Assembly: GCA_048938895.1 (NCBI GenBank)
Contig: JBHLLU010000079.1
Coordinates: forward strand, 1-14,786
Direction of reading: 5' to 3'
DNA from: Promethearchaeota archaeon
GTDB taxonomy: Archaea; Asgardarchaeota; Lokiarchaeia; Sigyniarchaeales; SOKP01
DNA: 14,786 bases
The notes beneath the pieces are model-generated. The model did no database searches. It was given only the letters and a program-made list of their open reading frames with translations, and was not told the DNA's origin. Every line of letters starts with the position of its first letter. Positions within the stretch are counted from its first letter, which is position 1. This document shows, piece after piece, positions 1 through 14,439 of the stretch. A program made the position numbers and the translations under genes.

Positions 1-229
1 ATTATGTCTAATTGAATTTTTATATTCCTGTAATAAGTGTTAATTTTCTAATCTAATATGTTGAATTACTCCATAACTGTGAGGTAAAATATAGAATTTT
101 ATTACCTTTCATATTCTTATTATTCGAAAATCTTAGGAGTATCAATAAATTTATAAATTCACATATTCTATAAATTATAATTTTAATTAGATAAGTTTTT
201 GAACAAATAGACACTAAATTAATCTATAA

Positions 230-256
230 TTTATATATTTTGCATAAAAAAAGGAA
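230..256 (+). promoter_or_regulatory. Possible TATA box and purine-rich RBS-like element for mvaS
   Basis: TTTATATA at 230-237 and AAGGAA at 251-256. A second TTTATAAA lies at 150-157. The region is very AT-rich, so this is ambiguous. Confidence 0.3.
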
Positions 257-261
257 TAACT

Positions 262-1896
262 ATGCTTTCAGATGATTATCTTTTTTCAAATATCGGTATT
301 GACAGTTTTGGATTCTACGCTCCCAAGCATTTTGTAAAACTTGAAGAACTTGCTTTAAAAAGAGGTGTTGATCCAGCCAAATATTCTAAGGGTCTTTTAT
401 CCAAAGAAATGAGAGTTGTTGATGTGGATGAAGATGTAATTTCTTTAGGTCTTAAAGCAGGATATAACGCTCTACAGAGAGGAAACATAAATCCTAAGAG
501 TATTGATGCTTTATTCGTAGGGACAGAAACGGAAGTATATTCCGCTAAGAGTATTTCGAATATATTCGCTGAAATGCTCGAAATTTCACCGAATGCTTTT
601 ACTCAGGACACATATAATGCTTGTGCTGGTGGGACTCTTGCGATTATAAATGCAATTGCAATGATTCAGAAAGAAATTATTGAAAAAGCACTTGTTATAA
701 GTGCAGACATATCTAGATACCATCTAGGCTCTCCTGGTGAACCTACCCAAGGTTCAGGTGCGATCGGTCTTGTAATTTCGAAAAATCCAAGGATCGCAGT
801 ATTTAGCCACAAATTTGGAAAAATCTCGGGAAATGTAAATGATTTTTTCAGACCTGCAAATGAAATTAATGCGAAGGCTTTTGGGGATTATTCTCAAAGT
901 GCTTATATAGACTTCCAATTGAAAGCTTACGATGATTTAGTTAAAAACATTGGAGATTTTCATGCTGATTTTTATACATTTCACGCCCCTTTTTCAAAAT
1001 TACCCTTAAAAATTATGCAACAAATTATTTTAAAGCGCTGGATTGGGCATATTAGCGATTTACCTAAATTTGAAAAAAATCGATTTAGATCATCAATTCT
1101 AAAAAAAATTGATTCCTTTCTGCATGATGTTACTGTTTTACCAGAATATCTTTATTTAAAACTAAATGAGAGAGGTTTTACCTCATCAACGTTAGAAAGA
1201 TTATCAGACTGGGTAAATACTAACATAAAAGCGCGAGTACTACCACAATTACGAGTACCAATGCATTTTGGTAATATGTATAATGCTGCAATATGGGCAC
1301 AAATTGTATATCTAATTGAAAATCATGCTCACGTTAACGATTTAATTTATTTCGGTTCATATGGTTCTGGAGCTACATGTATTTCTGGATTACTTAAAAT
1401 CCAACCAGGATTTAAGGAAACTGCTAAAGTAAAACCATTTATTGATGATTTTATTCATTTAAAGAAAAAGCAAAGTATATTAGAATATGAACTCATTAAA
1501 AATGGTGATGTGAAACCAATAATATTATTAGGAAAAATTACAGAACATGAATTAAATAAAAAAAGGGGTTTTACTCTTTATTTCTGTGATGAAGGATGCA
1601 TAATTCCTAATATTAGTGGATTAAATCATTGTCCTAAAGGACATTCTGGATTTCATAAACGTTTTTTTCCATTGTTTGCAAAATTAACATCAGAACCTAT
1701 TGCTCAAAATGAATTTGATGACCTAAAATATCTGAAAAAAGGTTTAGTTAGGGTTGCAGGCAATGTTAGCAAAGGTAATGCTTTAGAATATGAAATAAGA
1801 AGAGTAGAGACAGAAAATGAACCAAATTTTAATGCGAAAGGATTACTAAATTGGTGCCCCATTTATATAGCAATTCCTGAGCACCATATTTATTGA
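262..1896 (+). CDS. mvaS: Hydroxymethylglutaryl-CoA synthase with C-terminal Zn-ribbon/OB-fold (DUF35-like) extension
   Basis: 544 aa ORF. Catalytic triad in context: Glu89 (VGTET), Cys121 (NACAGGT), His241 (FHAPFSK). Also GEPTQGSGA, GNMY and SYGSG motifs and an N-terminal GIDSFGFYAP...RGVDPAKY typical of HMGS. AAGGAA lies just upstream of the ATG. First gene of the MVA cluster. Confidence 0.93.
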   Translation: MLSDDYLFSNIGIDSFGFYAPKHFVKLEELALKRGVDPAKYSKGLLSKEMRVVDVDEDVISLGLKAGYNALQRGNINPKSIDALFVGTETEVYSAKSISNIFAEMLEISPNAFTQDTYNACAGGTLAIINAIAMIQKEIIEKALVISADISRYHLGSPGEPTQGSGAIGLVISKNPRIAVFSHKFGKISGNVNDFFRPANEINAKAFGDYSQSAYIDFQLKAYDDLVKNIGDFHADFYTFHAPFSKLPLKIMQQIILKRWIGHISDLPKFEKNRFRSSILKKIDSFLHDVTVLPEYLYLKLNERGFTSSTLERLSDWVNTNIKARVLPQLRVPMHFGNMYNAAIWAQIVYLIENHAHVNDLIYFGSYGSGATCISGLLKIQPGFKETAKVKPFIDDFIHLKKKQSILEYELIKNGDVKPIILLGKITEHELNKKRGFTLYFCDEGCIIPNISGLNHCPKGHSGFHKRFFPLFAKLTSEPIAQNEFDDLKYLKKGLVRVAGNVSKGNALEYEIRRVETENEPNFNAKGLLNWCPIYIAIPEHHIY

Positions 1897-2009: not shown

Positions 2010-3221
2010 ATGATAATGAAAAATTTTATCTCAAACGGTCTAATTTCTAAATTACATGAAGATCATAACAATATCCTTCAATATTTAATTGAGAGGAATT
2101 ATGAACTTCAAGATCTTCCACTAAGAAATACTTATCTACAAGAACAAGGTGAAGCTTATACTTTAGCATACCCTATTCAAGGGATCTTAAAGTATCATGG
2201 AATAGTGAATCCAAAGCATAAAATTCCATACTTTCCTAGCATTTCTTTAAATAATGATTGTGGATTTACAGTTTCTTATTTGAAATTCGATAAAGGTTTT
2301 AAAGAAGATCAAGTCATTCTTAATGGAGAATGTGCTTCAAAGGCAGATTCGGAACGAGTTAAGTTTACACTAGACTTCATTCGAAATTATTCTGAAATAA
2401 ATACTAAAGCTATCTTAGTCTCTCGAAATTTTTTAAAAGATAATAGTGAAGGTTATATTGGTAAGGGTCTTGGGACTTCAGCATCAGGATCTTCAGCCCT
2501 TGCTTTAGCAGCAGCCTCTATCGTATATAATAATAATGAAAATTATGTGATGAATAAAAGATTGATAAGTATATTTTCAAGATACCTTGCCTGCTCCGGG
2601 GCTCGTAGTGCAGTAGGGGGTTTTTCTCTATTACTCAGTCATCCAAGTATTAATCCATTTGATAGTTATGCTATTAGGTTAGATCGTAGTGAAAATCAAT
2701 CGTTTTTAGAAAATATTTCTTTATTGACAATACCAATGAAATCTGATTTAAAAACTCATCAAGCTCATGAAATTGCCCCAAGATCGTCTTTTTTTCCTAC
2801 TTGGTTGAAACAAAGGAAAAAATTGATCTTCGAATTTTTTAATGCATTAAAGAATTCTGATTTGAATAAAATAGGGGAACTAGCCGAATATGATACATTA
2901 TGTCTACATTCCGTAATAATGTCTGTAAGAAATAATAATATTATCGCTTGGGATCCAAATACATTAAAAGTTATGCATAAAATTCGTGATCTACGCAAAA
3001 ATCATGGTTATAATGTTTATTATTCAATTGACACTGGACCCTCAATAGTCCTATTAACTATTGAAAATGAAAAAAAAAGAATAATTAATGAATTGAAAAA
3101 TATTATCCCTGAATATTTAATAATAGAAGGCAAAATTGGTGGGCCTTCCAGAATAATTTCTCCTAATTCCTCAGAATCTAGGAAATTAAAAGAGGATATT
3201 GAAAAATTTAATAAGTTTTAG
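2010..3221 (+). CDS. mvaD: Phosphomevalonate decarboxylase (haloarchaea/Chloroflexi type; MvaD/GHMP family)
   Basis: AYPIQGILKYHG...IPYFPSIS matches the recalled PMD signature (AHPIQGLVKYHG...PYHDSIS) rather than the diphospho-enzyme NIALIKYWGK. Also GHMP loop GLGTSASG, SGARSAVGGFS, KTHQAH, LAEYDTL, YYSIDTGPS and GGP near the C-terminus. Confidence 0.88.
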   Translation: MIMKNFISNGLISKLHEDHNNILQYLIERNYELQDLPLRNTYLQEQGEAYTLAYPIQGILKYHGIVNPKHKIPYFPSISLNNDCGFTVSYLKFDKGFKEDQVILNGECASKADSERVKFTLDFIRNYSEINTKAILVSRNFLKDNSEGYIGKGLGTSASGSSALALAAASIVYNNNENYVMNKRLISIFSRYLACSGARSAVGGFSLLLSHPSINPFDSYAIRLDRSENQSFLENISLLTIPMKSDLKTHQAHEIAPRSSFFPTWLKQRKKLIFEFFNALKNSDLNKIGELAEYDTLCLHSVIMSVRNNNIIAWDPNTLKVMHKIRDLRKNHGYNVYYSIDTGPSIVLLTIENEKKRIINELKNIIPEYLIIEGKIGGPSRIISPNSSESRKLKEDIEKFNKF

Positions 3222-3237
3222 AAATGTGAATTATAAT

Positions 3238-4518
3238 ATGAAAGAACTGCGTTCAGATATCTCAGGATTTTATAAGTTATCATTAGAAGAGCGTCAACAA
3301 AAAATATCACAAATACTTAACCTCTCAAAAGAGGATGTTAATATTTTAAAAAATTTAGGATATTTTACTTCAGGACAGATTGACACTTTAATTGAAAATG
3401 TAATTGGGAGTTATCAATTACCATTTGGTTTAGCTTTTAATTTTAAAATAAATAAAAGGGACTATATTATCCCCATGGTTATTGAAGAACCCTCTGTCGT
3501 TGCAGCAGCTTCAAATGCAGCAAAATTTGCTAGAAAATATGGAGGATTTACATCAGAAAATGTTAAGTCTATAATGATTTCACAAATCCAAATAACCCAA
3601 ATAGACAATATTGACTATGTGAAAAATCAAATATTAGACAATAAAGACAAAATATTAAGAATCGCAAATGAGCAAGATCCATTGTTAAATGAATTAGGTG
3701 GTGGTGCACTCGAATTGGAACTTCGGGAACTAAATACAAGGAAGGGTAAGATGCTGATAATACATTTGTTAGTTAATGTTCTAGATGCCATGGGTGCTAA
3801 CGTTGTTAATACTATGGCAGAAGCAGTAAGTCCTTTCATTGAGGAAATAACAAATGGAAAAATATATCTACGTATATTGTCAAATTTGGCAACACATAGA
3901 ATAGCAAAAAGTAAAGCAACTTTTGATAAAGATTTATTAGGTGGTCCAGAAATTGTGGAAGGAATATTAAATGCATATGAATTTGCAGTAGCTGATCCTT
4001 ATCGTGCCACTACTCATAACAAGGGTATAATGAACGGGATTGTTGCTTTAACCTTAGCAACAGGAAATGATACTCGCGCAATAGAATCAGGTGCTCATGC
4101 ATATGCTTCCTTGAGTGGAAAATATTCTCCATTGACAAAATTTGAAATAGACTCAAAAGGTAATTTAGTGGGGGAAATTGAAGTCCCTCTGGCTTTAGGG
4201 ATCATAGGCGGGATGACAAAAATCCATCCAATGGCGCGTTTAGCATTAAAAATCTTAAATGTAAAAAGTGCTAATGAGCTCTCTCAGGTAGGTGCTGCTC
4301 TTGGTTTAGCTCAAAATGTTGCAGCATTAAGAGCCTTAGCCTCAGAAGGGATTCAAAAAGGTCATATGGCACTTCATTCTCGAAATATTGCAAAGATTGC
4401 TGGAGTGCCAGATAATTTAATAGAAAAAGTTGCGAAAAAAATGATTGAAGATAAAAAAATTAGAGTTGATTATGCAAAAGAAATCTTAAAGAAAATGAAT
4501 GAAGGTGAAAACCTTTAG
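3238..4518 (+). CDS. mvaA: HMG-CoA reductase, class II
   Basis: SGFYKLSLEER, IENVIG, EEPSVVAAASNAAK, DAMGANVVNT, RILSNL, DPYRATTHNKGIMNG, GNDTRAIESGAHAYA and GIQKGHMALH are class II signatures. ATG 3238 is preferred over the track's TTG 3199, which overlaps mvaD. Confidence 0.96.
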   Translation: MKELRSDISGFYKLSLEERQQKISQILNLSKEDVNILKNLGYFTSGQIDTLIENVIGSYQLPFGLAFNFKINKRDYIIPMVIEEPSVVAAASNAAKFARKYGGFTSENVKSIMISQIQITQIDNIDYVKNQILDNKDKILRIANEQDPLLNELGGGALELELRELNTRKGKMLIIHLLVNVLDAMGANVVNTMAEAVSPFIEEITNGKIYLRILSNLATHRIAKSKATFDKDLLGGPEIVEGILNAYEFAVADPYRATTHNKGIMNGIVALTLATGNDTRAIESGAHAYASLSGKYSPLTKFEIDSKGNLVGEIEVPLALGIIGGMTKIHPMARLALKILNVKSANELSQVGAALGLAQNVAALRALASEGIQKGHMALHSRNIAKIAGVPDNLIEKVAKKMIEDKKIRVDYAKEILKKMNEGENL

Positions 4519-4595: not shown

Positions 4596-5912
4596 ATGAA
4601 TAATTTTATGGGATTTAGAGAATATATAGAAAGAATAAGTAATGAAGGAATTCTTCGAAATGTTAATCTAGAAGTTTCACGGAAATTAGAAATTTCTGGA
4701 ATTTTAAAAGAAATCGAACCGACTCCTGTAATTTTTAATAATGTGAAAGAATCTGAATTTCGGGTGGTTGGAAATGTGTTTTGTACAAAGAATGTTATTG
4801 CTTCTTATTTTGGGGTCACTACTGCCGATCTTATACCAATGCTTTCAGAAGCGATCGAAAAACGCTCTGAACCAGAAATTGTATCTAAAGCTCCATGCCA
4901 AGAAATTGTTGAATCTGAAGTAGATTTAGACAAAATTCCAATTTTATTTCATTGTGAGAAGGATGGAGGAAATTACATCAGTTCTGCAGTTTGTGTTACG
5001 AGAGATCCTGAATATGGACAGAACTTAGATTTTCATCGAGCAATGCAATTCTCAAAAGATAGTTTTGCGACTCGTATAGTAAAAGGTCGTCATTTTTCTA
5101 GATTTTTAGAAAAAAATGGGGAATTGGAAGTAGCTTTTTGTATAGGTAATACGCCTAACATTTTGATCGCGGGAGCAACTTCAGTAGATATTGGAGTAGA
5201 TGAGTTACATATCGCTAATGCATTAGAACCAATTAAAATAGTAAAAGCAAAATCAGTTGATCTTTTGATACCTGCAGAAGCAGAATTTATCTTAGAAGGT
5301 CGTGTTTATTTAGAACAAAGACATTCTGAAGGTCCTTTTGTTGATTTGACAGAAACATATGATACAATAAGGGAAGAGCCGATATTTGAAGTTAAAACGA
5401 TTACTCATCGAAAAGATGCAATATGGCAAGCTTTACTACCAGGGGCCCTTGAACATAAAATATTGATGGGTATGCCACGTGAACCAACTATCTTTAAAAA
5501 AGTAAATGAAAATGGAGTAAAATGCTTAGATGTAAACGTTAATCCCGGTGGTTGTTCTTGGCTCCACGCAATAGTTCAGATTGATAAAGAAAACGAAGAT
5601 GATGGAAAAAAAGCAATAGATGGCGCATTTGCTGGTCATACTAGTTGCAAACATGTATTTATTGTAGATAAAGATATTGATATATATGATCCTTTATCTG
5701 TAGAATGGGCTATGGCAACTCGTTTTCAAGGAGATACTCGAATGGTAATAAAAGATAAAGAACCAGGTAGTAGTTTAGACCCCAGTGCTGAACCTGGAAC
5801 AAAAATGACAACTAAAATAGGGTTTGACCTTACTAAACCCCTTATGGTGAGAGGAAAGAGTTTTGATTTAGCAGAATTTCCTAAAATCGATGTGGATAAA
5901 TATTTAAACTAA
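4596..5912 (+). CDS. ubiD: UbiD-family prFMN-dependent decarboxylase, by context trans-anhydromevalonate 5-phosphate decarboxylase (AMPD)
   Basis: UbiD motifs: EKDGGNYI, DFHRAM, AEFILEG, EGPFVD (catalytic Glu), VDKDIDIYD..VEWAMATRFQ, GSSLDPS, TKIGFDLT. Directly upstream of both AcnX subunits. Alternative start at ATG 4608. Confidence 0.92.
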   Translation: MNNFMGFREYIERISNEGILRNVNLEVSRKLEISGILKEIEPTPVIFNNVKESEFRVVGNVFCTKNVIASYFGVTTADLIPMLSEAIEKRSEPEIVSKAPCQEIVESEVDLDKIPILFHCEKDGGNYISSAVCVTRDPEYGQNLDFHRAMQFSKDSFATRIVKGRHFSRFLEKNGELEVAFCIGNTPNILIAGATSVDIGVDELHIANALEPIKIVKAKSVDLLIPAEAEFILEGRVYLEQRHSEGPFVDLTETYDTIREEPIFEVKTITHRKDAIWQALLPGALEHKILMGMPREPTIFKKVNENGVKCLDVNVNPGGCSWLHAIVQIDKENEDDGKKAIDGAFAGHTSCKHVFIVDKDIDIYDPLSVEWAMATRFQGDTRMVIKDKEPGSSLDPSAEPGTKMTTKIGFDLTKPLMVRGKSFDLAEFPKIDVDKYLN

Positions 5913-5926
5913 AGGTGTAGTGATTT

Positions 5927-7120
5927 ATGAAGTTAACAACCGAAGAGCAAGACATGCTAGATGGTAAGTTTGGAAAAGCGGCTCAGAAGTCGATGGAAAT
6001 ATTAACCACTTTAGGTGAAATCTTTGATGCTGAATGCATGATAAATGTTACCGGTGTTCAGATAGCTGGAGTTTCATATGAAAATCTCGGAGAAGCAGGT
6101 TTGGAGTTTTTAAGTGAAATGGCAGAAGATGGAAGAGTTAGAGTTCTAACGACTTTGAATCCTGCTGGAATGGATCGCGAAAATTGGGAAACTCTGGGGA
6201 TTGATAAAGAATTTGCAAAAAATCAGAATCGTGCTATAGATGCGTTCGCAAAGATGGGTATTATTACCACCTGTTCTTGCACACCATATTTAATTGGACA
6301 TACACCTCATTATGGTCAGCACCTAGCATGGGCAGAAAGTAGCGCTGTGTGTTATGCTAATTCGGTTATTGGTGCTCGAACAAATCGTGAAGGGGGTCCT
6401 AGCGCATTAGCAGCAGCAATTACAGGGAAAACCCCAATGTATGGATACCATTTAGAAGAAAACCGTCATGGTGAAGTATTTATTGAAGTAAATGCTCAAG
6501 TTAAAGGAACTGATGAATTTGGTGTCTTGGGAAAACTAATAGGGGATAAACTAGTTGAATTAGGCAAAAAAATTCCATATATCACTGGAATTTCAAATGC
6601 TACAGTTGAGGAATTAAAATCCTTCTGTGCTTCTGTAGCAACTTATGGAGGTACTGCTTTATTTCATATGGAAGAAATAACCCCAGAATATAATAACTAT
6701 CCTAAACCGGAGAAAATTTCTTTTGAAATCACTCAAGATGACCTAAAAAAATCACGCTCTGAACTGATTGATGAGGATCTTGAAATAAATTTTATCAGTA
6801 TTGGTTGTCCTCATGCTTCGATTCATGAAATTGCTAAAATTGCTAATTTATTGAATGGAAAAAAGGTAAAAAAAGAATTTTGGATTACGACAGCACGACC
6901 TACAAAAAGGATAGCCGATGAAGCTGGATATTCAAAAATAATAGAAGATGCTGGCGCAAAATTTGCTGCGGATACTTGTTGTGTAGTTGCACCCATCAAA
7001 GGACGATTTAAAGGAATAATGGTAGACTCAGCAAAAGCGTGTTATTACGGTCGTGCGAAAAATCAATTTAAAGTAAAAATTGGCTCTATTGAAAAGTGTA
7101 TAGAGGAGGCAATAAAATGA
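5927..7120 (+). CDS. Aconitase X catalytic subunit (DUF521); phosphomevalonate dehydratase large subunit
   Basis: MKLTTEEQDMLDG start, QIAGVSY, TTLNPAGMD, SCTPY, WAESSAVCYANSVIGARTNREGGPSALAAA, IGCPH and DTCCVVAP, including the candidate Fe-S Cys ligands. AGGTG SD-like element at 5913-5917. Confidence 0.94.
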   Translation: MKLTTEEQDMLDGKFGKAAQKSMEILTTLGEIFDAECMINVTGVQIAGVSYENLGEAGLEFLSEMAEDGRVRVLTTLNPAGMDRENWETLGIDKEFAKNQNRAIDAFAKMGIITTCSCTPYLIGHTPHYGQHLAWAESSAVCYANSVIGARTNREGGPSALAAAITGKTPMYGYHLEENRHGEVFIEVNAQVKGTDEFGVLGKLIGDKLVELGKKIPYITGISNATVEELKSFCASVATYGGTALFHMEEITPEYNNYPKPEKISFEITQDDLKKSRSELIDEDLEINFISIGCPHASIHEIAKIANLLNGKKVKKEFWITTARPTKRIADEAGYSKIIEDAGAKFAADTCCVVAPIKGRFKGIMVDSAKACYYGRAKNQFKVKIGSIEKCIEEAIK

Positions 7121-7506
7121 AATTTTCAGGAAGAACAATTTATAAGGGAATTGCTGAAGCAGAAGCTATAGTCACTAAAGACGGGATCTCTTTTTACGGT
7201 GGTGTTGACCCGGATACCGGAAAAGTTGTTGAAGTGGGTCATGAGCTTGAAGGTCAAACAGTATCGGGAAAGATTTTGGTGTTTCCAACCGGTAAGGGTT
7301 CAACAGTGGGATCCTATACTATGTATAGAATGAAGAAGAATAAGACTGCACCTGCTGCAATTGTAAATAAAGAGATTGATACAATTATAGCGGTTGGGTG
7401 TATAATAAGTGAAATTCCTTGTGTTGATAAGATAGATATTGATCATCTAAAAACAGGTCAAAAATTATTTGTTAACGGTTCAGACGGCACAGTAGAGGTA
7501 AAGTAG
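7117..7506 (+). CDS. Aconitase X swivel subunit (DUF126); phosphomevalonate dehydratase small subunit
   Basis: ISFYGGVDPDTG, GKILVFPTGKGSTVGSY (catalytic Ser motif) and APAAIV. The ATG at 7117 overlaps the upstream stop (ATGA) and follows GAGGAGG at 7103-7109, so it is preferred to GTG 7096. Confidence 0.94.
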   Translation: MKFSGRTIYKGIAEAEAIVTKDGISFYGGVDPDTGKVVEVGHELEGQTVSGKILVFPTGKGSTVGSYTMYRMKKNKTAPAAIVNKEIDTIIAVGCIISEIPCVDKIDIDHLKTGQKLFVNGSDGTVEVK

Positions 7507-8442
7507 ATGGGTCTAGGGAAGGGATTTGGGAAAACAATCCTATTCGGGGAACATTTTGTTGTGTATGGCTTACCAGCAATAGCATCAGCTTTAGAAGCTT
7601 ACACAACAGCAGAGGTTAAGATCGTCGAAGGAAATGGATGGGTTATGAACGATCAAAGATCAGCTACCCCAGGATATAAAGAAAAGAAATATGATGAAGC
7701 ATTACAATCTATACAAAATGTCATTGAATATTTAGATATTGATACAAGAGATCAAAAACTTGAAATTAGATTTGAAGGCAATTTAATTGCTGCCAGTGGC
7801 GTTGGTGCTTCAGCTGCCCAATGTACTTCTTTAGCTCGGGCATTAAATGATACATTTAACCTTAAATTGGATGACGAACAAATTAACGATGCAGCATATG
7901 AAGGAGAAAAAGCATACCACGGCACACCCTCTGGTATTGATAATACAGCCTCAACCTATGGTGGGTTGATATGGTTCAAAAAGAATTTAGCAGGGGGCAA
8001 AAATACTATGAATCTTATGCAGGCTTCAAAAAAAATGTATCTTGTAATTGCAAATTCAGGAATCACAGCATCAACAACAGAAGTAGTTGCTGATGTTAAA
8101 CGTCTAAAACAGGAAAATCCTAATAAATTCCTAAAGATTTTTCAAGACTATGAAAAAATAGCTGAAGAGGCGAAGAATGTCCTTTTAAAAGGAGAAACAA
8201 AATCCTTAGGAAATTTAATGAATCAAAACCACATACTTTTACAAAAAATTACTGTATCAGGAGAGGTGAATGATTTATTGGTTGATTTAGCCAAGGGAAA
8301 TGGGGCGTTGGGAGCTAAAATGACGGGCACTGGGAGGGGTGGTTTAGTCATTGCTTTAGCAGAAAATCAAAAATCTCAGAATAAAATTGCTAAAGCCATC
8401 AGAAAAAAAGGATATGATGCTTGGAAAACCATGATTGGATAA
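7507..8442 (+). CDS. mvk: Mevalonate kinase
   Basis: GKTILFGEHFVVYG, GHMP loop SGVGASAA, EKAYHGTPSGIDN and GAKMTGTGRGG. The ATG directly abuts the upstream TAG. Confidence 0.95.
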   Translation: MGLGKGFGKTILFGEHFVVYGLPAIASALEAYTTAEVKIVEGNGWVMNDQRSATPGYKEKKYDEALQSIQNVIEYLDIDTRDQKLEIRFEGNLIAASGVGASAAQCTSLARALNDTFNLKLDDEQINDAAYEGEKAYHGTPSGIDNTASTYGGLIWFKKNLAGGKNTMNLMQASKKMYLVIANSGITASTTEVVADVKRLKQENPNKFLKIFQDYEKIAEEAKNVLLKGETKSLGNLMNQNHILLQKITVSGEVNDLLVDLAKGNGALGAKMTGTGRGGLVIALAENQKSQNKIAKAIRKKGYDAWKTMIG

Positions 8443-9274
8443 GAGAGAGGTAAAATTGAAAAAAGAAAATGAAGTTATTCTATTAAAACTAGGTGGCGGC
8501 TTATTAACCGATAAAGATAAACCCTTGTTTATTAGAGAAGATATCGCAAAGAGCGTAATTCAACAAATAGTCAAAGCAAATGAAAAAGTAATTCTGATTC
8601 ATGGTGGTGGTTCTTTTGGGCATCCTCTAGCAAAAAAATATGATCTCATGAAAGGATTAGATCCCTCTATTTCCAATCAAATTTTTGGATTAACAGAAAC
8701 CCATCAAGCTATGGTTAATTTTAATTCTTACTTAGTTAATTTATTTCTTGAACGAAATTATCCTGCATTATCAATTCAACCCTCGAGTATTTTTAAAAAG
8801 GATAACAGGAAAATTACAATCATTAATATCAAGCTCATTGAAGATTTATTAGCTTTTAACATCCTTCCTATATTATATGGAGATATTATATTTGAAAATC
8901 ACACATCATTTTCGATATTATCTGGAGATCAAATTATCTTTAAGTTATGTGAAAAATTGAATAATTATCGGGTTTCGAAAGTTATATTCGCTATTGAAGT
9001 TGATGGATTATTTGTCAATGAAAAGGATCCTAAAAATAAAAAAATTAAACTAGTATCTGAGATACTTTCAAGCGAATTAGTTAATTTAGATTTAGCAGAT
9101 TTAGGAAAAAAAATAGACGTAACAGGTGGAATTCAAGGTAAAATTAACTCAATAAAAAAAATTTGTGCTTTCAAAATTCCAGTACAAATTGTTAATGGAC
9201 TTAAAGAAAATAATATATATAAATCGTTAAAGAATGAAAAAGTAATTAGTACCTATATAAAAATTAAGAACTAA
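8435..9274 (+). CDS. ipk: Isopentenyl phosphate kinase (amino-acid kinase family)
   Basis: LKLGGGLLTDK, IHGGGSFGH (IPK-specific His), PILYGD, ILSGD and DVTGGIQGK. Lies between mvk and fni and overlaps mvk by 8 nt. The start codon (TTG) is uncertain. Confidence 0.92.
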   Translation: MDKREVKLKKENEVILLKLGGGLLTDKDKPLFIREDIAKSVIQQIVKANEKVILIHGGGSFGHPLAKKYDLMKGLDPSISNQIFGLTETHQAMVNFNSYLVNLFLERNYPALSIQPSSIFKKDNRKITIINIKLIEDLLAFNILPILYGDIIFENHTSFSILSGDQIIFKLCEKLNNYRVSKVIFAIEVDGLFVNEKDPKNKKIKLVSEILSSELVNLDLADLGKKIDVTGGIQGKINSIKKICAFKIPVQIVNGLKENNIYKSLKNEKVISTYIKIKN

Positions 9275-9289
9275 CATATCTTATTAGAA

Positions 9290-10408
9290 ATGACTCAAAT
9301 AGAGAGAAAAAATATGTCAAAGGAGAATGATTCTAATAAAATAATGGAAAGAAAGTTAGAACATATCAAAATACCATTAGAGTATGATGTTCAACATTCT
9401 AAAAATTATTTTAGTGATATTAAATTAATCCATTACCCAATTCCAGACATAGATTTTGATGAAATTGATCTTACAGCAGAATTTTTTGAGAAAACTATTT
9501 CTGCTCCCATTTGTATTTCGGCTATAACAGGTGGACATCCCGTTTCAAAAGAGATCAATGAAATATTGGCAAAAGCAGCAGAAGAAGAAAACATAATTAT
9601 GAGTGTGGGAAGTCAACGGGCTGGTCTTGAAGATCCAAATCTATTAGACTCATTTAAAATTACCCGTCAAGTCGCTCCTACTATCCCAATCATTGGCAAT
9701 ATAGGAATTGGACAAGTTAGTGATATTAATTTTGATGTAGAGGATTTTAATAAATGCATAGAAATGGTTAAAGCTGATGTAATGGCAATTCACTTGAATA
9801 TATTACACGAATTGGTGCAGGATAAAGGAGATATATCATATAGACTTTTTCGAAAGAATTTCCAAAAGATCCGAGAAATGTATGATATTCCAATAATTGC
9901 AAAAGAAGTAGGAACTGGCTTCAACCAAGATTTAGCTCTTAACCTTGATAGACTTGGTTTTGATGGCTTTGACATTGGAGGAACAGGAGGAACTAGTTTT
10001 GCCGCAATTGAATCAAAACGTAAAAATTTCAACAATCAGCGATTTACTCGAGATCCATCAATAGTATTTAGGGAATGGGGTATCCCTACACCAGTAAGTG
10101 TTATTTATGTTAGAAAGGTCTCTCAAAAGCTTATAATTGCTACTGGGGGATTAAGAACTGGAATTGATATTGCTAAATCTATTGCACTTGGAGCAGATAT
10201 AGGTGGATTTGCATATAATTTTCTCCAATCAGCATGGAAAGATAGAAAAAATAATTCTATATCTCATACTGTTAAAGAAATAAGAACTCTAAAGAATGAG
10301 TTGAGATCGTGTTTATGGTTGATGAATTTAGATGAGATTGGAGAATTAAAAGGCAAAAGAGATAAATATGTTGTTCTAGGAAGCTTATATCGATGGTTAC
10401 ATCAATGA
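9290..10408 (+). CDS. fni: Isopentenyl-diphosphate delta-isomerase type 2 (FMN-dependent)
   Basis: RKLEHI, ISAITGG, VGSQR, GNIG, HLN, KEVGTG, GGTSFAAIE, EWGIPT and ATGGLRTGIDIAKSIALGA. The true start may be a later in-frame ATG. Confidence 0.95.
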   Translation: MTQIERKNMSKENDSNKIMERKLEHIKIPLEYDVQHSKNYFSDIKLIHYPIPDIDFDEIDLTAEFFEKTISAPICISAITGGHPVSKEINEILAKAAEEENIIMSVGSQRAGLEDPNLLDSFKITRQVAPTIPIIGNIGIGQVSDINFDVEDFNKCIEMVKADVMAIHLNILHELVQDKGDISYRLFRKNFQKIREMYDIPIIAKEVGTGFNQDLALNLDRLGFDGFDIGGTGGTSFAAIESKRKNFNNQRFTRDPSIVFREWGIPTPVSVIYVRKVSQKLIIATGGLRTGIDIAKSIALGADIGGFAYNFLQSAWKDRKNNSISHTVKEIRTLKNELRSCLWLMNLDEIGELKGKRDKYVVLGSLYRWLHQ

Positions 10409-10785
10409 ATATCTTCTAGTGAATCCTGAATAAGGTTTTCAAATTGAGAAAAGGCACTAAGTTGCCCTTTATAATTTTCTAACTTTATTGAATAAAGTTT
10501 TAAAAATTTCTTTGAAATTTTTTCTAATTCTCGGTTAATTTTTTTTTGTTTGAATTGTTTTGATGAATTTGCTACAAAGATTAAATCACTCTTTTTAATT
10601 AAAGTAAACCTTTTGTTATTCAATTCAAAATTAGATAAGCCGCCGTCAACCAATTCTTCGGCAAACATGTTCAATGCACTCATCATTGCCCCAAATAAAT
10701 GGGGGGACAGAGATTCATTGAAGGCTCTATGAAAAATTACAATTCCTGATTCTTTTACTATCCAAATATCCTGGAGCACCTTCAT
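10402..10785 (-). CDS. Asgard-type longin-like small protein (127 aa)
   Basis: Pattern DIWIVKESGIVIFHR...PHLFGAMMSALNMFAEE..GGLSNFEL...LIFVA...ELEKISKKFLKLY...YKGQLSAFSQF is a beta-beta-alpha-beta-beta-beta-alpha-alpha layout typical of lokiarchaeal longin-like proteins. ATG 10785 is 25 nt after the ubiX stop; the track's TTG 10851 overlaps ubiX. Confidence 0.65.
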   Translation of the reverse strand: MKVLQDIWIVKESGIVIFHRAFNESLSPHLFGAMMSALNMFAEELVDGGLSNFELNNKRFTLIKKSDLIFVANSSKQFKQKKINRELEKISKKFLKLYSIKLENYKGQLSAFSQFENLIQDSLEDIH

Positions 10786-10810
10786 TTGAAATCTTCTCTT
10801 TTCACATTTT

Positions 10811-11359
10811 CTAAGTAGAGCCCCATCGATTGATATTACTTTCAATCCCAATTTGATCTAATATTCTTCCTATGGTATAATCAATAAGCTCATCAACACT
10901 TTTTGGTTTTATATAGTAAGAAGGGATTGGTGGATATATGATCACACCTAACCTTGCCAATTTCAGCATATTTTCAAGATGAATAACACTGAATGGAGTC
11001 TCTCTGACGACCAATATTAATTTTCTTCTTTCCTTTATCATTACATCTGCAGCTCTTGAAATTAAATTATTCGCATAACCATTTGCTACTGCTGATAAGG
11101 TCTTCATTGAGCAAGGGATTATGATCATACAATCTATTTTATGAGAACCACTTGAGGGCGGTGCTAATAAATTATCAACTTCATAATTGATATCTGCTAA
11201 TTCACGAATATAAGAAACTTTATATTCTGTTTCAATGTTGATTATTTGTTCCGCAATTTTTGAAATTATTAAATCTGTCTTAATTTTCTTTTCTTTTAAT
11301 TTTTTTAATAGGTGAACAGCTAAATCAATTCCAGTTGCACCGGTAATTGCTACTAACAT
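10811..11359 (-). CDS. ubiX: Flavin prenyltransferase UbiX (prFMN synthase)
   Basis: VAITGATG, APPSSGS, IPCSMKTLSAVANGYANNLISRAADVMIKERRKLILVVRETP, HLENML and PPIPSYYIKP. An in-frame TAA lies immediately before the ATG, fixing the start. Confidence 0.96.
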   Translation of the reverse strand: MLVAITGATGIDLAVHLLKKLKEKKIKTDLIISKIAEQIINIETEYKVSYIRELADINYEVDNLLAPPSSGSHKIDCMIIIPCSMKTLSAVANGYANNLISRAADVMIKERRKLILVVRETPFSVIHLENMLKLARLGVIIYPPIPSYYIKPKSVDELIDYTIGRILDQIGIESNINRWGST

Positions 11360-11488: not shown

Positions 11489-12556
11489 TTAGAATTTTCT
11501 ATTCATAACAAAATTCAGTAGACTCTCAAAAAATTCTAATTCTGAGGAATTAATATGTGAGTTTAGATTTTCTAACGATGTAATTGCTTTTTGAAAATAA
11601 TCATATGCTAACTCTTTGCATGAACTAACTGAATCTGCTTCTGAAAACAAATCCTTAACTTCCTGAACATTTTCATTTGTCATATTTCTATTTTCTAGTA
11701 GTTGGATAAGCTTATTTCTTTTTTCGTTATTTAAATTGTTTAACGCAGTAAATTTGAGCGCAGTTAATTTATTCTCTCGAATATCACCATCAGTTGGTTT
11801 TCCAGTTACTTTTTCATCCCCGAAGGTACCTAAAATATCATCTATTATCTGAAAAATTCTCCCAAGATTGATACTATAAATAGAAAGATCTTTAAACCAC
11901 ACCTCACTTACCTGTGCATAATTTGCGCCTACTAATACTGATTTTTCAATTAATGCTCCTGTCTTTAGTGTTATCATTTCAATATAATCTGAAAGTGTTA
12001 AATTTGACCTATTTACCATATCCATTTCAATTAGAACTCCATCAGCTACTTCGATAAATGCTTGTTCATATAACTGTATTGCATTCAAATTTAACACTTT
12101 ATTGAAATCATTATTAAAATATGCTTCTAAACCCAGAAAGAAAGCAGAATCCCCCCCGATAATTCCTATTGAATTACCAAAATCTGAGGCTATCATCCTT
12201 TTTAATTTATATTTGTCATAATAATTCCTAAATCGGAAGTGAAATGCAGGGTTTCCCCTCCTAAAATCATCTTTATCAATTATATCATCATGAATTAGAG
12301 AGGCATTGTGAAGAAATTCAATACCCACACTTGGGATTATTATTTTCTCGTCGGGATTGTCCTTAAATGCATTATATGCGGCTATACATAATAAAGGACG
12401 AATTCTTTTTCCTCCTGCCAAAAAATAATCTTTTAATTCAGAATAGTAATCATTAAGAAACGGATTTTTGATGGTTAATAGTTTTCGTTTATAAATAGAT
12501 TCTATTGCCTTGTTAATTTTTTGCATGTATTTATTCACATAATCAGTAAACTTCAT
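11489..12556 (-). CDS. idsA: trans-Polyprenyl diphosphate synthase (IdsA/GGPP synthase family; chain length uncertain)
   Basis: GGKRIRP, first Asp-rich motif LIHDDIIDKDDFRRG, LKTGAL, second Asp-rich motif FQIIDDILG, and TGKPTDGDIRENK. Confidence 0.9.
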   Translation of the reverse strand: MKFTDYVNKYMQKINKAIESIYKRKLLTIKNPFLNDYYSELKDYFLAGGKRIRPLLCIAAYNAFKDNPDEKIIIPSVGIEFLHNASLIHDDIIDKDDFRRGNPAFHFRFRNYYDKYKLKRMIASDFGNSIGIIGGDSAFFLGLEAYFNNDFNKVLNLNAIQLYEQAFIEVADGVLIEMDMVNRSNLTLSDYIEMITLKTGALIEKSVLVGANYAQVSEVWFKDLSIYSINLGRIFQIIDDILGTFGDEKVTGKPTDGDIRENKLTALKFTALNNLNNEKRNKLIQLLENRNMTNENVQEVKDLFSEADSVSSCKELAYDYFQKAITSLENLNSHINSSELEFFESLLNFVMNRKF

Positions 12557-12753: not shown

Positions 12754-14439
12754 TTGGTTGATTTGAAGAGTTTATTATCAAATAGGAAGAAAATGGGGCT
12801 ATTTATCGGTGTTTCAATAATTATAATTGGTGTAATCCCATTATTCTTTCTAACTTTTTTTCCCGAATTAAAACAGTCATATACAATAAAACCCTTAGCT
12901 TTAGAAACAGAAGATGGGGTATACATAAGTGCTTTTAAATACACCCCAAAAGGAGAAAAGAGTCACGGGGGAGTAGTTGTTGGTCATAGTTTTTTTGGTA
13001 ATAAGCTCAACATGCAACCCATAAGCATTGAATTAGCTAAACGAGGTTTTACAGTTATTAATATAGATTTCCGTGGACATGGTGCTTCCGGAGGATTTTT
13101 CGCACGTAATAAAGTAATTTTCGATATGAAGGCTGCTATTGATTATCTAGAAAATGATTTGTCTTATATTACAGAAATTGGACTTGTTGGGCATTCTTTA
13201 GGTGCATATGCCGCATTATCTCTATCAAACAGTTACCCTCATAGAATTAATTCAACTGTAGTCATTGGTGCTATCTCCACTAAAGTCTTAAATATATCAA
13301 ATCTTCTTATGATTTCAGGAAAGTTTGATCTTGGACTAACCGAAGATCAGCTCCTTGAGGTTTTAAGGATCTATACAGGTAGAGAAGATCCAGAAATTGG
13401 GGTTGTCTACGATGGAGACTTTATCAATGGAAATAACACAAAAGCGTATATTAGCCCATTTGCAGATCATTTATCAGAAGTTGTAGATTATTCTGTTATC
13501 TATCAAACAATTCAATGGCTTGAACAATCCTTTAACGGACAAAAAGGAAAGAATATCATCATTACGGCTCCTGCTTTACAATTTTTTTCTTATTTTTCTC
13601 TAGTTGGTATTATTATACTCAATTCAATATTTGTAGTCTATTTAGCTAACTTTTTATTCAAACGCAAAAAGAAAAATATTGATAAAAAAATATTGATTAA
13701 TTATAAGGAAATCTCAATCTATCGACTTATTTTACATTATACCTTCCTAGTGGAGTCAATACAAATTTTCATTTTTTTATTATTATCAACCCTCTCAGAA
13801 GATATATTATCTTGGTCTACAACCAGTCTTACATTATCCCTTATAATTGGAGCCTCAATTGGATCATTCCTTATGTATAATTTTATTTTGTTGAATACAA
13901 GACCAAAATATACTATAAAAGATTTTTTTTATAAGGCAAAATCAATGTCATCCTCTAATCCAGGACGTTCGATAATTTTCGGTTTTATAATAGTTCTTTT
14001 TTCTATTTTGTCAATAGCCGCGATATGGCATTGGTCAATTCAAAATACCTTACCGACATTAAGAGGTATAGGCAGTATTATCTTATTAACTATAATATCC
14101 TTTCCTTTTTTATTTATAAGAGAATTTTATTTTAGGAGTATTCAGAATAAATTACAGTATTCAACTCACTATGAAGAATATTTTGTCATGATAGGCATAG
14201 GAATTTTTATTGATAATTTTCTCATTTTGTGTATAATCATAGTGGGAAAATTAAATTTTGCTTATCTCCCCCCATATGCTCTGTATTTATTAGCTTGGGT
14301 GGTGTTTTCGATTATTCAAAATTGTACCGTTACATGGGTATATATTCAATCAAGAAATATCCTTGGCTCAACGATTTTTAGTTCAATATTCTATGCATGG
14401 ATGCTTGTTGTTTTCTTTCCTAGTTACGGATTTCTTTAA
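12754..14439 (+). CDS. Membrane-anchored alpha/beta hydrolase with C-terminal multi-pass membrane domain
   Basis: N-terminal hydrophobic helix after NRKK, DFRGHGASGG, nucleophile elbow GHSLG (13189-13203), candidate catalytic His in ADHLSEV, then roughly 8 hydrophobic segments. Start is either TTG 12754 or ATG 12793. Confidence 0.8.
   Translation: MVDLKSLLSNRKKMGLFIGVSIIIIGVIPLFFLTFFPELKQSYTIKPLALETEDGVYISAFKYTPKGEKSHGGVVVGHSFFGNKLNMQPISIELAKRGFTVINIDFRGHGASGGFFARNKVIFDMKAAIDYLENDLSYITEIGLVGHSLGAYAALSLSNSYPHRINSTVVIGAISTKVLNISNLLMISGKFDLGLTEDQLLEVLRIYTGREDPEIGVVYDGDFINGNNTKAYISPFADHLSEVVDYSVIYQTIQWLEQSFNGQKGKNIIITAPALQFFSYFSLVGIIILNSIFVVYLANFLFKRKKKNIDKKILINYKEISIYRLILHYTFLVESIQIFIFLLLSTLSEDILSWSTTSLTLSLIIGASIGSFLMYNFILLNTRPKYTIKDFFYKAKSMSSSNPGRSIIFGFIIVLFSILSIAAIWHWSIQNTLPTLRGIGSIILLTIISFPFLFIREFYFRSIQNKLQYSTHYEEYFVMIGIGIFIDNFLILCIIIVGKLNFAYLPPYALYLLAWVVFSIIQNCTVTWVYIQSRNILGSTIFSSIFYAWMLVVFFPSYGFL

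Follow-up and report, generated by a model that had tools for sequence, protein, structure and literature searches.

A conserved C-terminal tail on the HMG-CoA synthase of Lokiarchaeia-type Asgard archaea, a candidate fused and diverged DUF35 scaffold

The HMG-CoA synthase (HMGS) gene described here lies near the start of a 14,786-nucleotide stretch of DNA from a Promethearchaeota archaeon (contig JBHLLU010000079.1 of assembly GCA_048938895.1; the whole 14.8-kb stretch is referred to as the window). Behind an apparently active catalytic core it encodes a tail of 132 residues that is conserved among relatives and goes unrecognized by domain family libraries. The best explanation of the protein as a whole, to which a probability of about one half is assigned, is that the tail is a diverged DUF35 scaffold fused to an active HMGS. 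The new element is the combination, fixed in one lineage of archaea, of an active HMGS with a DUF35-like domain that is cryptic at the sequence level and has a Cys3-His site.

HMGS carries out the second step of isoprenoid lipid synthesis, and the preceding step, that of the thiolase, is thermodynamically uphill. Archaea overcome the uphill step by clamping the thiolase to HMGS through a DUF35 scaffold. Asgard archaea have isoprenoid membranes and are the nearest known relatives of eukaryotes. A full-text literature search, supplements excluded, returned no description of an Asgard HMGS tail, and neither a tail, nor DUF35, nor a thiolase is mentioned in excerpts of a survey of mevalonate genes in archaea from 2024 (PMC11052028). 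Fusions of DUF35 with members of the thiolase superfamily have been known since 2010 (PMC2954200), so that the Asgard tail is a variant and not a wholly new kind.

The tailed gene and its catalytic core

The gene is complete and can be divided into the following parts, given with the evidence on which each rests.

262..1896, forward strand: complete HMG-CoA synthase gene, 544 amino acids (aa) and a TGA stop (list of open reading frames, translation, Pfam, AlphaFold2 model)
262..1497, forward strand: HMGS catalytic core, residues 1-412 (alignment to solved HMGS stops at residue 412)
526-528, 622-624, 982-984 and 1273-1275, forward strand: codons of the tetrad E89, C121, H241 and N338 (codon check)
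1498..1581, forward strand: residues 413-440, in which the last core helix ends and is followed by a beta-hairpin (421-428) and by a strand (436-441) that runs into the first knuckle (models)
1582..1665, forward strand: putative zinc-knuckle segment, residues 441-468, C442-x3-C446-x10-C457-x3-H461 (conservation, hhalign, spacer)
1666..1872, forward strand: OB-like beta-barrel, residues 469-537 (models, Foldseek, motif match)
1873..1893, forward strand: last 7 residues, 538-544, which differ in length and sequence among relatives (alignments)

The core is recognized by two Pfam models, HMG_CoA_synt_N (E 6.2e-22; 78.8 bits, cut-off 25) and HMG_CoA_synt_C (E 2e-08; 34.7 bits, cut-off 25.1), both above their gathering scores and together spanning residues 10-373. 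In the final segment that can be aligned to solved HMGS, residue 412 stands opposite residue 386 of 419 in 5hwp. An earlier reading made from the letters alone, referred to here as the sequence-only reading, had let the core end near KKKQSILEYE and had counted about 130 extra residues with two knuckles beyond it. Both placements hold: the element occupies residues 401-410, shortly before the structure alignment stops, and 132 residues follow (nt 1498-1893), with C442 (1585-1587), C446 (1597-1599), C457 (1630-1632) and H461 (1642-1644) all exact by codon. The tail sequence that had been quoted, GNVSKGNALEYEIRRV...GLLNWCPIY, is likewise present in the translation of 262-1896; it contains C442-DEG-C446, ten further residues, C457-PKG-H461 and a C-terminal GNALEYEIRRV...GLLNWCPIY. 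Bacterial MvaS runs about 30 residues past the point where the alignment stops, hence approximately 100 residues of the tail (about 441-544) are without a counterpart in HMGS, and residues 413-440 would appear to replace the C-terminal 30 or so residues of bacterial MvaS. On the opposite strand of the tail region the list of open reading frames (ORFs) contains no overlapping ORF of at least 80 aa.

The core itself has the features of a working enzyme. The four residues E89, C121, H241 and N338, which correspond to the E-C-H-N tetrad named for HMGS (PMC12960953), are conserved without exception in the 48 sequences aligned, and in the alignment to 5hwp the E and C fall on its motifs. By sequence the core is closest to 5hwp (5.4e-39) and the Staphylococcus aureus enzyme (5.1e-38), then to a plant HMGS (9.7e-32), the archaeal 6esq_I (2.6e-30) and the human protein (5e-25). 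Foldseek with the full-length model returns bacterial MvaS at the top (E 5.5e-33) and the same order as the sequence ranking; the archaeal HMGCS of 6esq, at 2.6e-30 and rank 16, comes behind bacterial MvaS. Among the NCBIfam models the bacterial TIGR01835 scores best, with 212.6 bits against a cut-off of 360.35, ahead of the archaeal models at 175.1 and 134.4 bits. All five HMGS equivalogs (bacterial, archaeal, eukaryotic and haloarchaeal) remain below their own cut-offs, which marks a divergent subfamily and not a protein other than HMGS. Over its entire length the 412-aa core can be aligned with the eukaryotic and haloarchaeal models, and it is longer than the short archaeal type of about 350 aa. 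Bacterial MvaS (PDB 5HWP, 1TVZ, 1X9E) shares its catalytic residues and long C-terminal half, ends about 30 residues past the start of the Asgard tail, and is without a zinc or OB module. Judged from sequence, the protein is an active, long-type, divergent HMGS, and the earlier description of it as catalytically intact and of non-archaeal type is borne out by the invariant tetrad and by bacterial MvaS being the best match in sequence, fold and NCBIfam score.

Conservation, fold and kinship of the tail

A word-indexed protein search with residues 405-544 as query returned 256 proteins at E <= 0.01. Among the 120 matches listed, 112 are at least 540 aa long, and every named one bears the label of an Asgard HMGS-family protein. 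The joining of two adjacent genes by an assembly or frame error in the contig would make the fusion an artefact; no supporting point was found for it, and its likelihood is practically nil. The uninterrupted ORF, of 542-560 aa, recurs in related genome loci, and the same ORF is found in those 112 database proteins from many sources, by which the artefact is considered refuted. Averaged over 111 full-length relatives, the tail shows 75% and the core 80% identity to the window protein.

A scan of GTDB, with one genome per species, yielded 61 confirmed loci, and in all 61 the tail is situated at the end of an HMGS gene within a mevalonate-pathway cluster. Forty are labelled Promethearchaeota or Promethearchaeia, 14 bear other Asgard candidate names, six are listed as "uncultured archaeon" and one has a bacterial label; the closest HMGS relatives among the matches listed all come from Asgard archaeal metagenome-assembled genomes. 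The locus with the bacterial label (L046, contig DATKTW010000113.1, Candidatus Nanopelagicaceae bacterium) has an Asgard-type cluster and an Arf/Ras-family GTPase and is probably a mis-binned contig. The window tail was aligned with those of 58 of the 61 loci (L004, L008 and L032 were omitted without any criterion), and 41 columns are the same in all 59 of these tails, among them C442, C446, C457 and H461 as well as the pair E428-H429. Over 48 full-length proteins, with identities down to 36%, C442 and C457 do not vary at all; C446 and H461 are retained in 90% or more.

A HMMER profile of the 59-tail alignment, run against 1,835,955,588 representative proteins, gave only 33 matches at E <= 1e-3. 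Twenty of these were scanned with Pfam. All nine full-length proteins (473-607 aa, with 36-58% identity to that of the window) are tailed HMGS, three are fragments with an HMGS C-domain, and seven are without a family, two of which (P0135 and P0153) have sub-threshold matches to unrelated families only; the 13 matches outside the scan are fragments of 45-128 aa. One match, P0150, was rejected as a relative of the tail, being an unrelated repeat protein without a Pfam family. Variation at the knuckles is seen in P0151, where the first is CxxC, and in P0127, which has Asn in place of His. Since the tail is conserved and the full-length profile matches are all HMGS, it is taken to be a real, selected domain found only on HMGS, and by its sequence conservation it appears to be under purifying selection. 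Within the mevalonate-pathway cluster of Lokiarchaeia-type Asgard archaea the fusion is fixed; the sequence-only reading had staked its claim on the tail being found again in homologs, and there it is present and conserved.

A second, divergent tailed HMGS paralog of 540 aa was encountered at L058 (9531-11153, reverse strand), beside carotenoid genes for phytoene synthase, desaturase, lycopene cyclase and a carotenoid synthesis protein; a partial copy stands at the start of L042.

The knuckle segment is predicted to bind one zinc ion through three Cys and one His. The sequence-only reading had drawn attention to these unusual ligands (CxxGC and CxxGH), and the CxxxC/CxxxH set is both confirmed and conserved. 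The spacer between the knuckles is 10 residues, as it is in the DUF35 proteins SSO2064 (C49, C52, C63, C66; PMC2954200) and Trf (C24, C27, C38, C41; PMC6996347). These two proteins (PDB 3IRB and 6HTJ) are built from a ribbon followed by a five-stranded OB barrel, the layout predicted for the tail, and have domain sizes similar to those of the latter; they differ from it in that they have four Cys ligands, carry N-terminal helices in place of an enzyme core and are detectable by Pfam. Conserved motifs of the barrel region are F468-F469-P470, G505..LEYE.RR (513-514) and G527-L-L-N-W531-x-P533-x-Y535. The stretch G-N-A-L-E-Y-E-I-R-R-V resembles the G..VE..FRR of the 6esq_E DUF35 family and the GDALTATIRRV of P0154, a haloarchaeal HMGS-like-DUF35 fusion, so that a C-terminal motif G..[VL]E..[FI]RR is common to the tail and DUF35.

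AlphaFold2 models the tail alone (59-row alignment) with a mean predicted local distance difference test (pLDDT) score of 85.5 and a predicted TM-score (pTM) of 0.77, and the full-length protein (48 rows) with a pLDDT of 88.0 and a pTM of 0.92; in the latter the tail blocks have pLDDT values of 78-97, and blocks within the barrel stretch 469-537 reach 80-97. Both models consist of a hairpin, a strand into the first knuckle, the second-knuckle loop, three strands, a short helix and more strands. The barrel follows the knuckle region in the order beta1-beta2-beta3-helix-beta4-beta5, its elements being strands 465-470, 472-475 and 480-482, helix 489-493, and strands 496-499, 507-515 and 530-537. 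As modelled, and with confidence, this order of strands and helix is that of an OB fold with a knuckle loop before it, and the predicted structure thus has the knuckles and barrel on which the earlier reading depended.

Compared by Foldseek with 350,542 PDB chains, the tail model places DUF35-family chains in eight of the first ten ranks (6esq_E/F/G, 6ok1_B/D, 7pyt_A, 6htj_A/B). In first place is the DUF35 scaffold from the thiolase/HMGCS complex of Methanothermococcus (6esq); 6ok1_B/D are the DUF35 of ChsH2, and 6htj_A/B, which are Trf, have the highest Foldseek probability (0.84). Further DUF35-type chains appear at ranks 20 (7pxp_A), 26 (9myr_B) and 47 (5m3k_B), where 7pyt_A and 7pxp_A are taken as DUF35-type from their length and from the description of BbsAB as "DUF35-associated" (PMC12960953). 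Embedding neighbours in the ESM Atlas point the same way: the three named clusters nearest to the window tail are all DUF35 (PF01796/PF12172; 0.79, 0.75 and 0.75), as are the four clusters shown for the tail of P0151 (0.81, 0.78, 0.78 and 0.76), a protein 42% identical to that of the window over its whole length, the two tails being about 40% identical to one another. Scores below 0.9 on this scale count as leads only, for shuffled proteins reach 0.8 one third of the time.

Alignment-to-alignment comparison made use of a DUF35 set assembled from P0154, haloarchaeal DUF35 proteins and ten plasmid DUF35 genes of bacteria and haloarchaea, a set whose relation to the 6ESQ scaffold is clear (E 2.6e-16). 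When 76 tails were compared by hhalign with 23 diverse DUF35 sequences, a match of 83 colinear columns was obtained (score 26.8, E 0.0016, probability just 16%), which extends from the first knuckle to the last strand and therefore covers both sub-domains. Here C442, C446 and C457 fall on DUF35 cysteines 1-3, and H461 lies one residue past the fourth. None of 100 column shuffles reached this score (mean 11.7, standard deviation 2.2, maximum 20.3), and the reversed alignment scored 12.1.

A number of results weigh against DUF35 kinship. The tail does not match the two models, PF12172 (zf-ChsH2) and PF01796 (OB_ChsH2_C), by which Pfam defines DUF35, both of which do match the true fusion P0154. 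On the window tail Pfam, even at E <= 10, and NCBIfam return nothing, and Pfam at E <= 10 finds no relevant family on the tails of 18 out of 18 scanned relatives. Against PDB sequences the tail profile gives one chance match (E 1.2), and there is no free DUF35 protein among its 33 database matches. BLASTP of the tail with the true fusion recovers only a 14-residue G.AL...IRRV match at E 0.08. With the alignments built by the tool itself hhalign yields E values of 0.16 and 0.061, and with narrow DUF35 sets it aligns the last strand only (E 0.0067 and 0.01, probability 4-6%), at a score that none of 40 shuffles attained. With its Cx3C and Cx3H knuckles, which supply three Cys and one His, the tail departs from the CxxC/CxxC of DUF35, and in the L058 paralog the second knuckle has become CPGGN, so that the His ligand is gone. 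The Foldseek search has no match at E <= 0.001. Its DUF35 matches have E values of 0.019-0.2, TM-scores (TMq) of 0.24-0.31 and root-mean-square deviations of 10-12.7 Å, compared with the 2.2-2.5 Å over 107-110 residues at which true DUF35 structures superpose (PMC6996347), and most of the other rows are N-terminal domains of MCM, another architecture that combines zinc and an OB fold. With scores this poor, the DUF35 ranking is suggestive and no proof.

These observations bear on the possibility that the tail is an independent zinc-knuckle and OB domain, convergent with DUF35, that serves another partner such as a regulator, a nucleic acid or the adjacent HMG-CoA reductase. No sequence method reached accepted significance, Foldseek TM-scores do not exceed 0.31 with MCM N-terminal domains scoring nearly as high as DUF35, the ligand pattern is unusual, and Trf shows that the DUF35 fold can be found in an unrelated role in translation (PMC6996347). 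Convergence is nevertheless considered quite improbable: three differing methods each choose DUF35 first from whole libraries, the hhalign match is colinear across both sub-domains and lies above all 100 shuffles, and the ribbon of MCM is inserted inside its OB fold (PMC2954200), whereas here, as in DUF35, it precedes the barrel. Moreover, the protein that carries the tail is the very enzyme known as a binding partner of DUF35.

Four independent weak lines (Foldseek, ESM, hhalign, and the spacer with its motif) thus agree on DUF35, none of them significant alone. The evidence for kinship is graded as lying between a lead and moderate, and descent of the tail from DUF35 is regarded as likely. 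The divergent DUF35 proposed in the sequence-only reading stands to the extent that these signals concur and that DUF35 chains rank best in the suggested AlphaFold and Foldseek check; it falls short in the missing Pfam match, the hhalign probability of 16%, and Foldseek values of E >= 0.019 and TM <= 0.31.

Thiolase docking and its alternatives

As proposed, the 3′ quarter of the HMGS gene would encode a highly diverged DUF35-type module (zf-ChsH2 and OB_ChsH2_C), with a zinc knuckle pair and a five-stranded OB-like barrel placed in cis on a competent, long bacterial-like HMGS. The zinc site of three Cys and one His would be structural. The fused domain would function as a built-in scaffold, like the free DUF35 of the Methanothermococcus complex, and would dock an acetoacetyl-CoA thiolase whose gene lies in another part of the genome, so allowing the HMGS reaction to pull the unfavourable thiolase condensation. 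That thiolase docking is the present function of the tail is suggested by analogy with known systems and is put at slightly less than an even chance.

The nearest of these systems is the Methanothermococcus thiolase/HMGCS/DUF35 complex (6ESQ), which acts at the same pathway step, has the HMGS and zinc-ribbon/OB modules proposed for the Asgard protein, contains in its own DUF35 chain the top PDB fold match of the tail and shares the G..VE..FRR motif. There the DUF35 is a separate protein of about 130 aa with four Cys ligands, and the HMGCS is of the short archaeal type (349 aa); in the Asgard protein the module is fused, invisible to Pfam and of the Cx3C/Cx3H type, the core is of the long, bacterial-like kind, and there is no thiolase gene in the vicinity. 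The Methanothermococcus genes for thiolase, HMGCS and DUF35 reportedly form a single cluster. DUF35 bridges HMGS and thiolase in three solved complexes (PMC12960953), and in the archaeal complex and bacterial derivatives a common CoA chamber passes on the intermediate (PMC12960953, PMC6996347).

Fusions with the domain order of the Asgard protein, in which an HMGS-type thiolase-fold domain is N-terminal and the C-terminal part consists of a zinc ribbon and an OB fold, are PfACAT/HMGS-DUF35 of Pseudomonas fluorescens (PMC12960953) and the haloarchaeal P0154, both encoded beside thiolase genes. In PfHMGS the E-C-H-N tetrad is absent (PMC12960953); in P0154 the catalytic E, C and H are replaced, the DUF35 part is recognized by Pfam and a thiolase gene is adjacent. 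The Asgard protein is distinguished from both by its full tetrad, its mevalonate cluster, the lack of an adjacent thiolase and a tail that escapes Pfam. On plasmid pHBOR02 of Halogeometricum borinquense (L062, 2811-5398) the thiolase gene overlaps the start of the 472-aa fusion P0154, which is annotated only as a zinc ribbon domain-containing protein; similar haloarchaeal plasmid genes (H48, H51) carry the annotation HMG-CoA synthase.

The main rival to docking is a tail that is derived from DUF35 and docks no thiolase, serving instead as a zinc-stabilized cap in cis for folding, oligomer contacts or the binding of CoA or acyl-CoA. Long-type HMGS of bacteria and eukaryotes function alone, without DUF35. 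The gene surroundings likewise count against docking. In the 61 loci and the window, phmmer with a haloarchaeal thiolase query found no thiolase among 1135 ORFs of at least 70 aa, a DUF35 profile run with hmmsearch brought up no free DUF35 in that set of ORFs, and Pfam on representatives of all 98 ORF clusters detected neither; there is thus no thiolase or DUF35 gene within 10 kb of a tailed HMGS, and a thiolase gene is found in 0 of 62 clusters though all later pathway genes are present. Thiolase/DUF35 pairs are conserved genomic neighbours in archaea, and Asgard genomes are reported to have such pairs in 67% of 62 cases, with a mean of 3.8 (bioRxiv 10.1101/2024.07.05.601840); as their thiolases have DUF35 neighbours of their own, a fused copy is not obviously needed. 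A cap would also agree with the initial proposal of DUF35 as an acyl-CoA-binding module (PMC2954200). The full-length pTM of 0.92, by which the tail is predicted to be rigidly placed on the core, fits a cap and a scaffold alike. A complex prediction of the tail with two copies of THIOL_METTL, a stand-in from another archaeon, was run without controls and scored 0.00, which speaks neither for nor against binding.

Several points favour a docking scaffold over such a cap, which is considered somewhat unlikely. Every DUF35 solved in complexes bridges two thiolase-fold enzymes (PMC12960953, PMC6996347), and 11 of 12 fetched plasmid DUF35 genes adjoin a thiolase gene, the twelfth having unnamed neighbours. 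The surface-type motifs LEYE.RR and GLLNW.P.Y are as conserved as the catalytic core, seemingly more so than a cap would need. The scaffold reading could be carried further, to a two-component channeling machine in which a long HMGS of bacterial and eukaryotic likeness absorbed DUF35 and captures a thiolase lacking a DUF35 partner. The tailed enzyme would then be an evolutionary intermediate between the archaeal three-protein complex and the HMGS that stands alone in eukaryotes and bacteria, and its tail a new, sequence-cryptic Cys3-His branch of DUF35. This extended version is thought unlikely.

If HMGS does carry its own scaffold in the same chain, this would be a different way to build a channeling complex; it would connect the short archaeal with the long bacterial and eukaryotic HMGS types and would offer a ready single-chain design for pathway engineering. 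If the tail is a structural cap only, the result amounts to a modest annotation note. More than 250 database proteins, annotated merely as "HMG-CoA synthase family protein", hold this domain that family libraries miss, and a dedicated tail model would better their annotation.

The isoprenoid cluster and its neighbours

The window has 28-38% G+C and contains a nearly complete isoprenoid-precursor cluster. Beyond HMGS the following genes are recognized, by Pfam and NCBIfam except where noted.

2010-3221, forward strand: MVD/PMD-like, GHMP decarboxylase-like gene
3199-4518: HMGR
4596-5912: UbiD-type decarboxylase
5927-7506: AcnX (aconitase-X), large and small subunits
7507-8442: MVK (mevalonate kinase)
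8435-9274: IPK (isopentenyl-phosphate kinase)
9290-10408: IDI2 (type-2 IDI)
10402-10851, reverse strand: longin-like protein (Pfam Fuz_longin_1, E 1.6e-7)
10811-11359, reverse strand: UbiX
11489-12556, reverse strand: polyprenyl synthase

HMGR, MVK, AcnX, UbiD/UbiX, IPK and IDI2 cluster with HMGS in the window and in related loci, in the same order. Over the 61 loci and the window, the gene after the tailed HMGS is HMGR in 30 and the decarboxylase-like gene in seven, and the remaining pathway then follows. The decarboxylase-like gene encodes 403 aa and is found in 15 of the 62 clusters. Its best NCBIfam match is phosphomevalonate decarboxylase MvaD (165.9 bits against a cut-off of 475), and Lokiarchaeia homologs have been read as phosphomevalonate decarboxylase (PMC11052028). 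Together with the AcnX/UbiD/UbiX route, this gene may mean that two routes past phosphomevalonate coexist.

IPK and IDI2 are separate in the window and in 13 related loci; in 25 loci they form one fused ORF of at least 600 aa (for example L006, L014 and L021). The longin-like protein, which has a eukaryote-signature fold, is located between IDI2 and UbiX and occupies the same position in 15 of 62 clusters. Among the neighbouring genes of related loci are some for Ras/Arf-family GTPases and for Roadblock and RagA-like proteins, which fits an Asgard origin.

Upstream of HMGS, a divergent cis-prenyltransferase gene is present in 39 of the 61 loci and window, and past it are encoded two conserved proteins, about 612 and 555 aa long, that match no Pfam family; the window itself begins too near HMGS to include them. 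Examples upstream are L005 4053-5723, L037 4698-6536 and L056 1259-1984, all on the reverse strand. At the other end of the window, 12754-14439 on the forward strand encodes a protein of 561 aa with an N-terminal alpha/beta-hydrolase domain and a long hydrophobic part, probably a multi-pass membrane region; none of the other loci holds a relative of it. In L005, some 10 kb upstream of HMGS, a partial ORF (3-272, forward strand), whose gene continues beyond the edge of the locus, contains an SCP2 sterol-transfer domain (E 2.7e-7).

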